Shown piece after piece: positions 4,110 to 8,655 of a stretch of 64,000 bases of DNA. Below the pieces are notes generated by a model that had not been told where the DNA came from, made no database searches, and saw nothing but the letters and a program-made list of their open reading frames with translations. How positions within the stretch are numbered: position 1 is the first letter of the stretch; the number at the start of each line of letters is the position of its first letter. Source of the DNA: Rectinema sp. (lineage in GTDB: Bacteria; Spirochaetota; Spirochaetia; Treponematales; Rectinemataceae); contig DAOOGR010000001.1 of NCBI GenBank assembly GCA_035415815.1, positions 990 through 64,989 of the forward strand, written 5' to 3'. A program made the translations under genes and the position numbers.

Positions 4110-4904
4110 TCACCTTTGTCCGGTGCTTGCAGGCATGAGTGCAATACAGTCGAATATAGTTCGTCCTCCCTGATAAGCAGTAGCACTTCGCCGGATTATG
4201 CGCCAAAGCCCATTCTGATATTTGCCATCAGTTTCAATCCTTTCGGTCAAGCCAGGAGTTGTCTCAATAAAATTCATGAGTTCGAGGTTTTGTGTTAGAG
4301 CGAATGGCTTAATGCCTACTCCTGCAATTATCGAGACCGGTTCGATTATAAGATTGGACAGCTCTGGTACAGGTTGAGTTGCCATAGCGGCTTTTGCTTG
4401 GAGACGAATCATTCTTGCTCTAGCGTCGGGTCCAGCAGTCTCCTTGCTTACTGATATTAAATCCAGTAGATAATTGCGAACATCATTCAATTCTTTTATT
4501 GTGGACAATTTATCTATTTCTGGTGAGGATTTGAGTACCTTGGCCAAAGTTGATATTTCTCGAAGATAGTGGTTTCGCTGATTAGAAGGAACCAGGTACA
4601 TCACAATTATAGAGACAGGTACTCCATCGGGAGCTCCATAATCGATACCTGTTGGGCTCCATCCCACTACGCACATCAAGTCTTCTTCGAATTCCACACG
4701 CGCATGAGGGCAAGCCCACCTTTTGCCAAGAGCGGTGTTCATCGATTTTTCCCTTGCCATCACATTGCCCACAATATCGGTTCCAGTGGGAATTTGCGGA
4801 AAGGCTTCGATTATATGAGCGAGAAACTGGAGCGCATGATCCTTATCATTTTCTGGAAGCTCAAAAAGCCTGCCTTCCTGGAGGGCGTCAAGTATAGAGT
4901 CCAT
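4110..4904 (-). CDS. PTS EIIA type-2 (EIIA-Ntr-like) domain protein with an uncharacterised C-terminal domain of about 110 aa
   Basis: The N-terminal 150 aa match the EIIA-2 pattern, including the phospho-His context LGKRWACPHARV and DGVPVSIIVMYLVP. The start ATG lies 2 nt after the mgtA stop, with GGAG inside the mgtA 3' end. Confidence 0.7.
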   Translation of the reverse strand: MDSILDALQEGRLFELPENDKDHALQFLAHIIEAFPQIPTGTDIVGNVMAREKSMNTALGKRWACPHARVEFEEDLMCVVGWSPTGIDYGAPDGVPVSIIVMYLVPSNQRNHYLREISTLAKVLKSSPEIDKLSTIKELNDVRNYLLDLISVSKETAGPDARARMIRLQAKAAMATQPVPELSNLIIEPVSIIAGVGIKPFALTQNLELMNFIETTPGLTERIETDGKYQNGLWRIIRRSATAYQGGRTIFDCIALMPASTGQR

Positions 4905-4906
4905 GG

Positions 4907-7561
4907 TTATGCTCCTTCAAAATGTTTAAAAAACCAGCATTTCACTTTATGTGTGATAATCGAATAGATCAGAAGAAATGCCACTATCCAAATCCAATAG
5001 ATGCCAGGGAGAGGGACAAGGCCGAGAATGCTTGCGATGGGAGAGTAGGGCAACCAGATTCCAATTCCCATAACCACCAGTGTTGCAAGAATCATAGGAG
5101 CCGAAGCCCTGCTTTGAAAGAAAGGGATGCGCTTAGTCCGAATTATGTGGACAATGAGAGTCTGTGTCAGTAGTGACTCGACAAACCAGCCTGTTTGAAA
5201 AAGGCTAGCCGCGGCATTCCGTTCTGCCAGTGAAAGGGCAGGGTTCAGGTAATTTTTTGCATTGAAGAAAAACCACATAAGCGCAAAAGTCGCATAATCG
5301 AAGATTGAGCTAATTGGTCCAATACACATCATAAATCGCTTTATATTGTCGATATCCCATCTGACTGGTTTTGCGACCAATTCTGGATCCACATTATCCA
5401 TAGGAATGCCAGTCTGGGAAATGTCATACAGTAGATTATTGGCAAGTATTTGAAGAGGCTTCATGGGGAGGAAGGGCAGAAGGAAGCTCGCCCCCAGCAT
5501 GCTGAACATATTGCCAAAATTCGAGCTAGATCCCATTCTTATGTATTTGATTATGTTAGAGAAGATACGCCTGCCTTCCATAATCCCTTCTTCTAGCACT
5601 AGAAGGCTCTTTTCCAGCAATACGATATCTGCTGCTTCCTTGGCAACATCTACCGCCGAATCGACCGATATTCCCACATCGGCTGCTTTGAGAGCAGTAG
5701 CATCGTTTATTCCGTCTCCCAAATATCCAACTATGTTTCCCTGTCGTCGCAATTCTTTGACTATCTCTTCTTTTTGGTTTGGAGTTAGTTTAACAAAAAC
5801 CTCGCACTTCCTTACTTTATCAGAGAATTCATCTTTATCGAGAGCTGCCAGCTCAGGGCCGGTAATCGATGAAGTGAAGGGGATCCCGACATCCTTGCAT
5901 ACTTTCTTAGTAACAAGACCGTTGTCGCCTGTTAGAACCTTTACTTCGACACCAGTCTTGGAAAGGAGTTCGATGGCTTTGGTTGCTGATTCTTTTGGAG
6001 GATCGATAAAGGCAATATAACCCAACAATATAAGCTGGCTTTCATCCTCGACAGTAAATGTAGTCTTTTGACGTGGAAACTCGCGGTAGGCTATGCCCAG
6101 AACCCTAAACCCTTCAGTATTCAATTTCTCTACATCCTCGAATAGGTCTGCCCGGATCATATCTATCAGAGGATATATTTCCTCATCGATCTGGTAATAA
6201 GAACAACAACTGTATATCTCTTCGACTGCCCCCTTGCAGATTAGGACGTTATCCCCTTCGTATTCTACGATTACCGACATTCGGCGGCGCTGAAAATCGA
6301 ATGGAAGTTCATCCACAAGTTGACATTCGTCGACATTAAGATCGACATGTTCAAGTACAGCTCTATCTAGGAGGTTTTTCAGGCCTGTCTGAAAGTAGCT
6401 ATTGAGATAGGCGTAGTTAAGGACCTCATCGCTCTTGTTTCCAATGATATCCACATGATGTTCGAGTACTACACGATCCTGTGTTAGAGTACCTGTCTTG
6501 TCAGTACATAGGATATTGATGGCGCCAAGATTCTGGATAGATGGCAATTTCTTTACTATGACTTTCTTCTTTGCCATCGCCAGAGCTCCCTTAGCAAGGT
6601 TCACTGTAACGATCATGGGGAGCATTTCAGGAGTAAGCCCTACTGCTACAGATAAAGCAAAGAGCAGCGCTTCTAGCCAATTTCCTTTGGTTACTCCAAC
6701 GATCAAGAATACTACGCTGACCATAATGAGCATGAGGCGAATCATTAGCCACGTGAAGGAACGTATGCCTTTATCGAAACTGCTTTCCTCGCGACGCTCT
6801 ATGAGCTTTTTCGAAATAGTACCGAAAAGCGTATTGGTGCCTGTGGAAACGACTATGGCTCGGGCTGATCCGCTAGTAACGCTAGTGCCCATAAAGCAGG
6901 CATTAGGTAATTCGATCGCCGATCTTATAGTACCTGTTGGCAGAGCAGCGGATTTTTCTACAGGCATCGATTCTCCTGTCAAAGCCGATTCGCTTACAAA
7001 GAAGTCTTTTGCCCAAATGATTCTCACATCAGCTGGTACTATTGCTCCAGTTTGGAGCAGCACAATATCCCCAGGCACGACTTCAGACATTCTGATTTCA
7101 GTTTCGATGCCATTTCTGAGTACATAAGTGCGGGACTGGACACGCTTGCCTAGAGACTCGACTTCTCTATTGGAACGATTGTCCAGTATGTAAGAGAGCC
7201 CTACACTCAATAGGATCATTGCACCCACAACGGCTGCGGATTGCATTTCTCCAATTAAAGAAGAGATCGCCGCAATGACGAGAAGTTGGATGACAAGAGG
7301 GTTCTTGAAACGGTCTAGCATGTCCTCCCAGAAATTGAGTTTTTTCAGTTGTGCAATTTCATTTTTGCCAAACTCCGAAAGCCTTTTGTCGGCTTCCTTT
7401 TCGGAAAGGCCCTGAGGACCCGATTCGAGCGTCTCAAATACGCTCTGAAGCGGAGTCAAGCAGATAGAAATCAGCTTGTTCTCATTTGCGCTAGAGATAC
7501 TTCCATTCTTTGTTTCAGTCTTTTTCCTTATGGAGGGTAATATAAGTGGAAATTTAGTCAT
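4907..7561 (-). CDS. mgtA: magnesium-translocating P-type ATPase
   Basis: 884 aa. P-type motifs TGES, CTDKTGTLT and GDGINDATALKAADVGISV, with 10-TM topology. The overall layout is that of MgtA/MgtB. Confidence 0.9.
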   Translation of the reverse strand: MTKFPLILPSIRKKTETKNGSISSANENKLISICLTPLQSVFETLESGPQGLSEKEADKRLSEFGKNEIAQLKKLNFWEDMLDRFKNPLVIQLLVIAAISSLIGEMQSAAVVGAMILLSVGLSYILDNRSNREVESLGKRVQSRTYVLRNGIETEIRMSEVVPGDIVLLQTGAIVPADVRIIWAKDFFVSESALTGESMPVEKSAALPTGTIRSAIELPNACFMGTSVTSGSARAIVVSTGTNTLFGTISKKLIERREESSFDKGIRSFTWLMIRLMLIMVSVVFLIVGVTKGNWLEALLFALSVAVGLTPEMLPMIVTVNLAKGALAMAKKKVIVKKLPSIQNLGAINILCTDKTGTLTQDRVVLEHHVDIIGNKSDEVLNYAYLNSYFQTGLKNLLDRAVLEHVDLNVDECQLVDELPFDFQRRRMSVIVEYEGDNVLICKGAVEEIYSCCSYYQIDEEIYPLIDMIRADLFEDVEKLNTEGFRVLGIAYREFPRQKTTFTVEDESQLILLGYIAFIDPPKESATKAIELLSKTGVEVKVLTGDNGLVTKKVCKDVGIPFTSSITGPELAALDKDEFSDKVRKCEVFVKLTPNQKEEIVKELRRQGNIVGYLGDGINDATALKAADVGISVDSAVDVAKEAADIVLLEKSLLVLEEGIMEGRRIFSNIIKYIRMGSSSNFGNMFSMLGASFLLPFLPMKPLQILANNLLYDISQTGIPMDNVDPELVAKPVRWDIDNIKRFMMCIGPISSIFDYATFALMWFFFNAKNYLNPALSLAERNAAASLFQTGWFVESLLTQTLIVHIIRTKRIPFFQSRASAPMILATLVVMGIGIWLPYSPIASILGLVPLPGIYWIWIVAFLLIYSIITHKVKCWFFKHFEGA

Positions 7562-7563
7562 AG

Positions 7564-7608
7564 TTCACCTCACATTTCTGTCAATCTCTCCTGACAGAAG
7601 GAGGTGAA
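7564..7608 (-). promoter_or_regulatory. Shine-Dalgarno-sequestering hairpin in the mgtA 5' leader
   Basis: The mRNA reads UUCACCUC-C-UUCUGUCA-GGAGAGAU-UGACAGAA-AUGU-GAGGUGAA-CU-AUG. Two perfect 8-bp helices are stacked, and the 3' arm is the mgtA SD. Confidence 0.55.
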
Positions 7609-7630
7609 TGGCATAGGACAAAATGTAGCT

Positions 7631-7732
7631 CTATGCTTTTTCTATACCAGCTGCCAGGTGAGATGGTCGCGGGAATGGATCTTCGGGCTCGGTAAAGATG
7701 CAGTGACTATGACTGCCATCCGAGTCATTCAT
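7631..7732 (-). CDS. candidate 33-codon proline-rich leader peptide upstream of mgtA
   Basis: AAAGGAGG-7nt-ATG opens MNDSDGSHSHCIFTEPEDPFPRPSHLAAGIEKA. This is the in-frame C-terminal part of track ORF 7631..7867, whose own first ATG has no SD. Confidence 0.4.
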   Translation of the reverse strand: MNDSDGSHSHCIFTEPEDPFPRPSHLAAGIEKA

Positions 7733-7885
7733 GACACATCCTCCTTTTTGCTGGGATTTAATAGATTTAGAATTCGATTTACTATGCATCATTATATGGC
7801 TATAGTCAAGCCCTATATGAGAATTTGCAGCCCTTGATCTTTGGTGGGCTCTTAATATAGCGTCCATTTGGAGAATATGGATATC

Positions 7886-7915
7886 TTGACATCTAGCCTG
7901 TTTTTCAATTAGTTT
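7886..7915 (+). promoter_or_regulatory. possible promoter for tRNA-Pro/tRNA-Arg
   Basis: TTGACA (7886..7891), an 18-nt spacer, then the weak -10 TAGTTT, ending about 13 nt before the tRNA 5' end. Confidence 0.3.
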
Positions 7916-7928
7916 ACAACGCTGAAAC

Positions 7929-8001
7929 CGGGACGTAGCCTAGGGGCTAAGGCGTCTGCTTTGGGAGCAGAAGATCGGAGGTTCAAATCCTCTCGTCCCG
8001 A
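7929..8001 (+). tRNA. tRNA-Pro (anticodon UGG)
   Basis: Hand-folded cloverleaf: acceptor CGGGACG/CGTCCCG, anticodon stem TCTGC/GCAGA with loop TTTGGGA, T-arm GGAGG-TTCAAAT-CCTCT. No encoded CCA. Confidence 0.93.
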
Positions 8002-8076
8002 ATACTGCTTTTGGATGCGGCAAAAAAGCAGCCTCTTTAAGGCCTGTGCATTTTTTGCTTTTATTGCGCACTCAAT

Positions 8077-8150
8077 GGGATCATAGCTCAACTGGATAGA
8101 GCAACTGCCTTCTAAGCAGTAGGTCGCGCGTTCGAGTCGCGCTGGTCCCA
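8077..8150 (+). tRNA. tRNA-Arg (anticodon UCU)
   Basis: Acceptor GGGATCA/TGGTCCC, anticodon stem ACTGC/GCAGT with loop CTTCTAA, T-arm GCGCG-TTCGAGT-CGCGC. No encoded CCA. Confidence 0.93.
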
Positions 8151-8195
8151 TAAAATTTATTTAGCTTATATCAATTATAATCTATAAGTTAGGTA

Positions 8196-8267
8196 AGCGA
8201 CCGATGGGAGTCGAACCCACGTCTCCAGCTTGGAAGGCTGGGGTAATAGCCGTTATACGACGGTCGC
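8196..8267 (-). tRNA. tRNA-Gly (anticodon UCC)
   Basis: Reverse strand: acceptor GCGACCG/CGGTCGC, anticodon stem CCAGC/GCTGG with loop CTTCCAA, T-arm GTGGG-TTCGACT-CCCAT, discriminator U. Confidence 0.93.
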
Positions 8268-8356
8268 AATCAATTTGTGCCTCTTTCCGCAAGCAAAGGC
8301 AAAGCTTTCTAAGTGTCCTATTGTTTTTGCCTGCTTGTAGCTTCTCGACTTGGGCG

Positions 8357-8385
8357 ATTTAAGCGCACGATGCCTTGCTTGTCAA
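8357..8385 (-). promoter_or_regulatory. candidate sigma70-type promoter for tRNA-Gly
   Basis: The reverse strand reads TTGACA (8385..8380), a 17-nt spacer, then TTAAAT (8362..8357), about 90 nt upstream of the tRNA 5' end. Confidence 0.45.
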
Positions 8386-8655
8386 GTAGGCCTAAGGTAC
8401 CCATCCGCCAGAGTGGCTTAGAAGCGCCCTTAAAAATGAATCATACCTAAATTGGCTCTTGCTCCAAACTGTCTTTCAGTATAAAATTGTGTCTAATTTG
8501 TAAGCATATTGCCGCAATATTTTATATTTTTTCGATATTGGGAAGAGGACGACTTATTTTTGCTGTTTTTCTGAGCTTATTTTTGTTCGATAATCATGCA
8601 CTAATGAGATGCGATCTTGTTTCCCAAGCATCGACTCAATGCAGAGGGAATTAAG

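Follow-up and report, generated by a model that had tools for sequence, protein, structure and literature searches.

Only for Salmonella and E. coli is it understood how translation of an acidic/proline leader peptide controls an Mg2+ importer. There, negatively charged stretches with intermittent prolines destabilize the translating ribosome, and the leader peptide MgtL (MEPDPT...) thereby induces mgtA (10.1101/2021.02.02.429294; PMC12856214). Translation is aborted at DE/P motifs, an effect that is stronger at low Mg2+ and with fewer than ~30 residues in front of the motif (10.1101/2021.02.02.429294). In the Salmonella 8-amino-acid (aa) mgtQ, acidic codons and alternative stem-loops release mgtB's ribosome-binding site (RBS) (PMC8092293). 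Here we analyzed a 64,000-nucleotide (nt) stretch of a Rectinema sp. contig (DAOOGR010000001.1, positions 990 to 64,989; hereafter the window, whose own numbering is used throughout), in which a short upstream open reading frame (uORF) precedes the Mg2+ transporter gene mgtA (Table 1). Judged by comparison with other genomes, this uORF belongs to a multi-phylum, unannotated family of mgtA leader peptides with a DE/P motif and a predicted translational expression platform. A first-pass annotation of the window had read the uORF as a proline-rich leader peptide with an MgtL-like logic, an interpretation that our analysis supports, with the refinements described below.

The likeness to MgtL begins with the arrangement, a short ORF with its own Shine-Dalgarno (SD) sequence in the 5' leader of mgtA (TIGR01524) and on the same strand. 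It extends to an acidic/proline motif with nonconsecutive prolines (EPDPTPLP in MgtL, EPEDPFPRP in the window and EPEDPGPRR in the family), to a basic run that follows this motif in many family members, and to the expected logic, in which inefficient reading of the motif under low Mg2+ would raise mgtA expression. The MgtL sequence containing EPDPTPLP, given in the first-pass annotation, was verified (E. coli b4702, 17 aa). In contrast to the 17 aa of MgtL, however, the family peptides are 33 to 57 aa long and have an extra conserved N-terminal block, and while the MgtL motif follows directly after Met, with abortion occurring within MEPDPT (10.1101/2021.02.02.429294), the family motif is located at residues 15 to 27 (residues 15 to 23 in the window and 20 to 27 in 45-aa members). 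The N terminus itself, MNDSDGS in the window, has only 2 D in 6 residues. Furthermore, the enterobacterial output is Rho-dependent termination, whereas an SD-masking hairpin is predicted here, and the hosts of the family are Spirochaetota, Desulfobacterota, and members of other phyla, not Enterobacterales. A comparison of the family profile with MgtL gave 4.5 bits with only PxPRRxL aligned, the sequences being very short, and homology of the family to MgtL is unproven.

With mgtQ, the window leader shares a uORF with acidic codons, which are ribosome destabilizing in mgtQ (PMC8092293), a stem-loop that sequesters the RBS in front of a gene for a Mg2+ P-type ATPase, and an alternative pairing with uORF sequence that competes with the sequestering stem, so that control is translational; here, these features are computational predictions. 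The two differ in that mgtQ is intergenic within an operon, has 8 aa, and uses four segments (1:2 plus 3:4 versus 2:3), and in that its translation is itself needed for opening of the RBS (PMC8092293), whereas the Rectinema leader has three supported segments and a 5' leader uORF that encodes a longer peptide, whose conserved motif contains Pro. In sequence, mgtQ and the family are not similar.

Other leaders are related more loosely. The short ORFs mgtP (which has Pro codons) and mgtM of the Salmonella mgtCBR leader also choose between alternative stem-loops upstream of Mg2+-homeostasis genes when they are translated, but they act on transcription elongation, respond to charged tRNA-Pro and ATP, and have other sequences and hosts (PMC3641672). 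The M-box (ykoK) is likewise a cis-acting leader on Mg2+ transporter genes in nonenteric bacteria; it is, however, a metabolite-free RNA sensor that is independent of translation. In ermC, cat, and secM-secA, the classical cases of translational attenuation by leader-peptide stalling, the mRNA is remodeled according to where a ribosome stands in the leader ORF, and a downstream SD is thereby exposed. This control of a downstream SD by a leader ribosome is the point of likeness, whereas the signals are antibiotics or secretion force and the arrests are stable, as opposed to the drop-off expected at a DE/P motif. Rfam scans of window positions 7400 to 8400 (E <= 10) and of four other family leaders (E <= 1) returned tRNAs only, with no match to Mg_sensor (RF01056) or the M-box (RF00380). 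Consecutive Pro codons, as in EF-P-dependent polyproline stalling, were also sought, and no PP dipeptide is present in the window peptide or the family consensus. The work on Pro550/551 (PMC6460261) concerns residues within mgtA and not the leader. Literature searches turned up no report of MgtL-like peptides in bacteria other than enterobacteria, Treponema included, the library searched being incomplete.

The leader ORF of the window

The mgtA product matches NCBIfam TIGR01524 with 1091 bits (cutoff, 610.75), and 368 nt separate its start from the nearest gene on the other side of the leader, a tRNA-Pro gene (7929-8001). The uORF with its SD, 7-nt spacer, and ATG at 7732 is present in this gap as the first-pass annotation had described it, and its frame closes with TAG at 7633-7631. 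The translated frame also contains the four prolines within nine residues noted in that annotation, and it is EPEDPFPRP that holds these four Pro residues of the 33-aa peptide. A promoter of the form CTTGAC-N17-CATAGT/CATACT is kept in 11/11 aligned spirochaete leaders, while its flanks are not, which implies a transcription start near 7774, ~42 nt upstream of the uORF ATG. With this conserved promoter lying upstream of it, the uORF should therefore be part of the transcript. A longer, 78-aa version of the frame from an ATG at 7867 opens upstream of the promoter, and its additional part is not conserved. The window uORF is 4 to 5 codons shorter than those of most other spirochaete members.

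Table 1. Features of the mgtA leader and adjoining genes in the window
Feature	Position	Strand	Detail and basis
PTS_EIIA_2-domain (PtsN-like) protein gene, 264 aa	4110..4904	-	domain search
mgtA, magnesium-translocating P-type ATPase, 884 aa	4907..7561	-	TIGR01524 equivalog; Pfam E1-E2_ATPase and related domains
Predicted SD-masking hairpin (2:3)	7564..7608	-	from TTCACCTCC... at 7608 to ...GAGGTGAA at 7564; 22 nt after uORF stop
Segment 3, hairpin 3' arm UUGACAGAAAUGUGAGGUGAA	7564..7584	-	contains mgtA SD GAGGUG (7571-7566); folding and comparison
Segment 2, hairpin 5' arm UUCACCUCCUUCUGUCAG	7591..7608	-	contains anti-SD CACCUCC; folding and comparison
Small hairpin GCAUAG...CUAUGC over uORF stop codon	7611..7636	-	shared by the window and L177, its nearest relative, but by no other member
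Leader uORF, 33 codons plus stop, peptide MNDSDGSHSHCIFTEPEDPFPRPSHLAAGIEKA	7631..7732	-	frame reading; homologues upstream of mgtA; protein-library matches
Segment 1 CCUGGCAGCUGG, uORF codons ~25-29, proposed anti-sequestrator	7647..7658	-	complementary to inner part of hairpin 5' arm
Acidic/proline motif EPEDPFPRP, codons 15-23	7664..7690	-	window version of the family core = E17-D18-P19-F20-P21
Codons 5-7 GAU GGC AGU (Asp-Gly-Ser) in N-terminal block MxDSDGSxS	7712..7720	-	near-invariant nucleotides across phyla
uORF Shine-Dalgarno AAAGGAGG	7740..7747	-	7 nt (atgtgtc) before ATG at 7732
Predicted sigma-70-type promoter	7781..7809	-	-35 TTGACT 7809-7804, 17-nt spacer, -10 CATAGT 7786-7781

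A family of leader peptides in several phyla

Searches of genome and metagenome contigs with the whole MgtA protein returned mostly distant MgtA proteins (at most 61-70% identity), and at these loci no consistent Pro-rich small ORFs were found except at L005 and L002 (L numbers denote the loci compared). In L005, a relative with a 70% identical MgtA, a frame reading MNDADGSYS...SEDPFP... lies at the same place, together with an SD and an anti-SD hairpin. A degenerate DNA pattern was then made from MNDxDG...DPFP only, without mgtA in the query, and run against a set in which each species was represented by one genome. Of the 16 stretches that it matched, 10 are spirochaete loci that include Treponema, Rectinema subterraneum, Spirochaetia metagenome-assembled genomes (MAGs), and others; all 10 are located directly upstream of mgtA, and the remaining 6 stretches are chance matches. 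From the same MgtA subclade, 80 loci were gathered without bias via an alignment of MgtA N termini, and the peptide profile matched 27 of them, compared with 1 of 160 loci with a more distant MgtA. With these loci the family reaches Desulfobacterota (Desulfatiglans, Smithella, Desulfobacterales, and Syntrophorhabdales), Sumerlaeota, Hydrogenedentes, one Bacteroidota MAG, and others.

A profile search of a 5.8-billion-protein library gave 35 clusters (E values of 7e-18 to 4.5e-6), all "hypothetical" or unnamed and lacking a Pfam domain, and an exhaustive profile search gave 88 clusters at 50% identity, nearly all of 34 to 67 aa and aligned from residue 1. Neither Pfam nor Rfam has an entry for the family. 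Its commonest, 45-aa form has the consensus MSDSDGSHSCQxMTQELTQEEPEDPGPRRLRLATRDVNGRRSIRA. Comparison across the family thus confirms the uORF as a genuine conserved frame that did not arise by chance: the features whose conservation the first-pass annotation had proposed to check, i.e., the ORF with its SD and reading frame and the Pro codons at its center, are kept in relatives and far beyond.

Within the peptide, conservation centers on a core of [DE][DE]PxP, which is always inside the first ~27 residues. Its amino acids are kept and its third codon positions vary, as in GAA GAT CCA TTC CCG, GAA GAC CCC GGC CCT, GAA GAT CCT TTA CCA, GAC GAC CCT GAC CCG, and GAA GAG CCT GGC CCT. Because the amino acids are constant while the third positions change, the acidic/proline motif is, by this comparison, under selection at the peptide level. 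The proposed comparison of synonymous and nonsynonymous changes thus came out in favor of a coding role, with the Asp, Glu, and Pro codons of the motif varying synonymously. The likeness of composition to MgtL that had been drawn from four prolines held up only in part: the acidic/proline motif is conserved, but family-wide just two of the four prolines are kept, together with the acidic residues. Since it is these two prolines and the acidic residues that are conserved, the motif looks more like a DE/P motif of "intrinsic ribosome destabilization" than like a purely proline-sensing one.

Other mgtA subclades have different small ORFs upstream, likewise with an SD and with Asp, Glu, or Pro right after Met, each conserved in 3 to 4 genomes. 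There are three such types, MEDDPGGQH..., MKDNEDQPPS..., and MPDSDEPGA..., and their carriers are L002, L233, L249, and L256; L199, L202, L207, and L235; and L216, L241, and L248. In motif position, these ORFs look more MgtL-like than the uORF family does. Within the family, L250 (1060-1192) has the N-terminal block in the +1 frame (MTRMVVI...), which then joins an ELEDPVP motif; this change of frame suggests a frameshift or an assembly error.

The mgtA SD is enclosed in a predicted hairpin that would compete with a pairing to the uORF

All members have a predicted SD-masking hairpin that follows the pattern (G)GUUCRCCUCC...GGAGGYGAAC-AUG. In the window, this hairpin is strong; its 5' arm UUCACCUCC... 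pairs with ...GAGGUGAA, with the mgtA SD inside. For 15 Desulfobacterota-type leaders, 95.5% of the cells of this 2:3 helix are paired, as opposed to 33 to 49% with a slid partner, and the helix contains three doubly changed pairs (reached in 4 of 500 shuffles), e.g., UUCGCC/GGCGAA and UUUACC/GGUAAA. For 12 spirochaete leaders, 87% of the 2:3 cells are paired versus 28 to 62% when slid. The column-wise covariation analysis found no double changes in the spirochaete hairpin, where the sequences are too similar; in this analysis, the window and L177 stood in a register shifted by 3 nt, and L165 and L168 were misaligned by MAFFT.

The best upstream partner of the anti-SD arm (segment 2) is located in uORF codons ~23-34, just 3' of the motif. 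In the window, CCUGGCAGCUGG (7658-7647) would pair with CUGUCAGG in the 5' arm. Spirochaete leaders have at least three versions of this 1:2 pairing (CCUGACAGC / GCUGUCAGG, CCAGACAGCUGG / CCAGCUGUCUUGG, and GCCGGCUGCCA / UGGCGCCGGC), and Desulfobacterota have another (GUGAACGGU / ACCGGUUCGC). In spirochaetes, 79% of its cells are paired versus 34 to 55% when slid, with a covariation of 0.199 versus 0.111, a score reached by 1 of 500 shuffles; the values for Desulfobacterota are 88.9% versus 21 to 50%, with a covariation score reached by 12 of 500 shuffles. In an alignment-free swap test with 14 representatives, cognate duplexes had a mean energy of -24.25 kcal/mol, compared with -18.2 +/- 1.0 kcal/mol when a leader was set against another member's arm (0 of 20000 permutations), and the mean z score of the 1:2 duplex against dinucleotide shuffles was -2.3. 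In L229, all three segments have changed in concert (GUAAAU / GUUUAC / GUAAAC). Taken as a whole, the predicted 1:2 pairing is co-evolving.

Equilibrium folding without a ribosome left the mgtA SD open with a probability of 0.35 to 0.69 in L178 and L180 to L182. When a ribosome footprint was placed on segment 1, this probability was 0.00 in the six closest spirochaete leaders (L177 to L182), and a footprint on the Pro codons gave mixed values. The simulations thus support two near-isoenergetic states in several relatives; the direction of regulation is not settled by folding.

A proposed mechanism and its main alternative

The reading that we consider probable, with moderate confidence, is that the leader is a ribosome-mediated translational attenuator that combines acidic/proline sensing of the MgtL kind with RBS release of the mgtQ kind. 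It would consist of three segments, with segment 1 inside the uORF toward its 3' end, segment 2 being the anti-SD arm, and segment 3 carrying the mgtA SD; the 2:3 hairpin would hide this SD, and the alternative 1:2 pairing would release it. With ample Mg2+, a smoothly moving ribosome would occupy segment 1 at the time when segments 2 and 3 are transcribed, so that 2:3 forms and mgtA stays untranslated. At low Mg2+, the ribosome would halt at E17-P21 or leave the mRNA there, so that segment 1 could capture segment 2, and the opened SD would allow translation of mgtA. As the acidic/proline nascent chain would destabilize the ribosome more at low Mg2+, more MgtA would be made as cytoplasmic Mg2+ drops. 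By analogy, we infer that the uORF is translated, that ribosomes stall or abort at the motif, that Mg2+ is the signal, and in which direction regulation runs; mgtA is probably turned on by low Mg2+. Masking and unmasking of the SD would probably make the output translational, as opposed to Rho-dependent termination.

Several points weigh against this mechanism. L212, L228, and L194 have no clear 1:2 partner, and covariation within clades rests on few independent changes. The fold of the window itself is dominated by the hairpin in every simulated state, with the SD open at most 0.07, and a switch there would therefore have to be kinetic and co-transcriptional. In spirochaete-type leaders, segment 1 would be partly covered by a ribosome that stalls when the last Pro codons are in its P site. 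The motif lies away from the extreme N terminus, where ribosome destabilization is strongest. Finally, the model does not account for the nucleotide-level conservation of the N-terminal block.

The main alternative is positive translational coupling, in which ribosomes that terminate at the uORF melt the base of the hairpin and allow (re-)initiation at mgtA, so that complete translation of the uORF would turn mgtA on and pausing at the motif would lower its expression. The distance between stop codon and hairpin bears on this directly. In Desulfobacterota-type leaders the stop is only 6 to 7 nt from the helix base (UAG-CCCACC-GGUUCGCC), within reach of a terminating ribosome, and in most spirochaete leaders it is 12 nt away. 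This distance is not conserved, however: it is 22 nt in the window, in agreement with the ~20 nt of the first-pass annotation, ~25 nt in L206, and ~47 nt in L192, and in all three leaders the hairpin is beyond the reach of a terminating ribosome. Nor does coupling explain why the anti-SD arm co-evolves with the uORF's 3' part, and it would be physiologically odd, as a destabilizing motif would then reduce the Mg2+ importer at low Mg2+. We therefore regard coupling as unlikely, and attenuation by the competing 1:2 pairing remains our preferred reading.

Constraints on the uORF outside the motif

The ends of the uORF are conserved in a different manner from its core. Codons 5 to 7, GAU GGC AGU, are almost invariant across phyla (the same codons are present in L177 to L228), with AGU never swapped for another Ser codon, and they belong to the invariant nucleotide stretch of the family leaders, GAUGGCAGU. 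Long-range pairing of this block with downstream sequence was not supported by shuffles in most members, including the window. The C-terminal third of the uORF is not conserved as a peptide. The recurring "DVNGR" of Desulfobacterota-type peptides corresponds to the RNA sequence GUGAACGG, and in L221, the DVNGR peptide is lost and the RNA complementarity is kept. By these comparisons, the uORF is constrained both ways, the motif as peptide and the C-terminal third as RNA.

It is conceivable that RNA structure alone is the conserved element, e.g., a riboswitch-like or protein-binding leader in which the reading frame is incidental or secondary. The invariant codons 5 to 7, the RNA that accounts for "DVNGR", and the C-terminal tails speak for this possibility, to which we nevertheless give little credence. 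A GGAG or GGAGG SD stands at a matching distance from the ATG in every member examined, an 18-nt insertion in L165 and L168 is a multiple of three and leaves the frame intact, the motif retains its amino acids with free third positions, and the profile matches end to end from Met1; the lack of an Rfam match in the window or the four other leaders also counts against it.

Rated lower still, and in our opinion very improbable, is a small protein that acts in trans, either by binding metal or by modulating MgtA. The conserved N-terminal block MxDSDGSHSC (D, D, H, and C) could bind metal, and the association with mgtA is strict. MgtR, MgtS, and KdpF, with which such a protein might be compared, are peptides with a membrane segment that act on their pumps, whereas the uORF peptide is hydrophilic and has no membrane segment. 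Its C-terminal third lacks conservation at the amino acid level, and its coding sequence is interlocked with the predicted SD-masking switch, both of which argue against a trans-acting product.

Short ORFs are common in any 350-nt spacer and numerous in this AT-rich one, but the probability of a chance ORF is negligible, as this idea is refuted by the mgtA-blind pattern scan, by profile searches in which conservation across phyla reached E values down to 7e-18 among 5.8 billion sequences, and by the comparison with L177, the nearest relative of the window: the uORF is 98.0% and the spacer to mgtA 98.6% identical, whereas identity is 87 to 90% in the promoter region and in the coding sequence of mgtA, both differences in the uORF are synonymous third-position changes, and the L172/L177 peptide is identical despite ~12% divergence of the surrounding DNA.

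If the proposed attenuation applies, the family would extend the principle of the ribosome as a Mg2+ sensor, through a destabilizing nascent chain, to at least five or six phyla, and would pair it with a different peptide and with a translational rather than Rho-dependent output. The ~90 natural variants could serve for probing the Mg2+ response of DE/P motifs with 15 to 25 preceding residues, dozens of "hypothetical" 37- to 45-aa genes would gain an annotation, and cultured hosts exist in Rectinema subterraneum and Gracilinema caldarium. A more far-reaching idea, which we consider speculative and rather unlikely, is that the 33- to 57-aa family represents a widespread, possibly ancestral form of nascent-chain Mg2+ sensing of which MgtL is a shortened derivative, and that the N-terminal block (GAU GGC AGU in MxDSDGSHSC) is a second sensing element, be it as an RNA site or as nascent peptide.

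Genes and sites adjoining the leader

The EIIA-domain gene begins 2 nt past the mgtA stop (GGAGCATAACCATG) and, because of this spacing, is probably co-transcribed and translationally coupled with mgtA. The gene order uORF-mgtA-EIIA was found in three re-examined family members, on distant contigs of other phyla, and since it recurs in unrelated contigs, the EIIA-domain protein may have a conserved role with this MgtA clade, as its partner or its regulator.

Some Desulfobacterota-type loci have, opened by the masked SD and ATG, an ORF of 80 to 90 aa that precedes mgtA. This ORF (MKNKNPLFVPELREILASGD...) is present in L214 (1157-1429), L196 (1163-1435), L229 (1190-1435), and L186 (1205-1441), and a domain search with it gave nothing beyond a subthreshold match to MgtE_N (E = 0.048). 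In L262 (Desulfatiglans LR026961, a complete genome), the 3 kb downstream of the family uORF (4225-7290) has no called gene; mgtA may be disrupted there or merely uncalled.

No intrinsic terminator (a G+C hairpin plus a U run) was found on the minus strand of the window leader, in which the hairpin is followed by AACUAUGACU, and a transcription attenuator of the trpL type was rejected, the leader having no terminator-like site. Just upstream of the window leader is a cluster of tRNA-Pro(UGG), tRNA-Arg(UCU), and tRNA-Gly(UCC) genes (7929-8267), of which tRNA-Pro and tRNA-Arg are divergent from mgtA. A cluster of three tRNA genes is also located upstream in L178 (678-1110), and in L167 (Rectinema), the region upstream of the leader resembles the tRNA-Pro gene of the window in a comparison by eye. 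The position of a tRNA-Pro gene next to a leader with Pro codons may be a coincidence.

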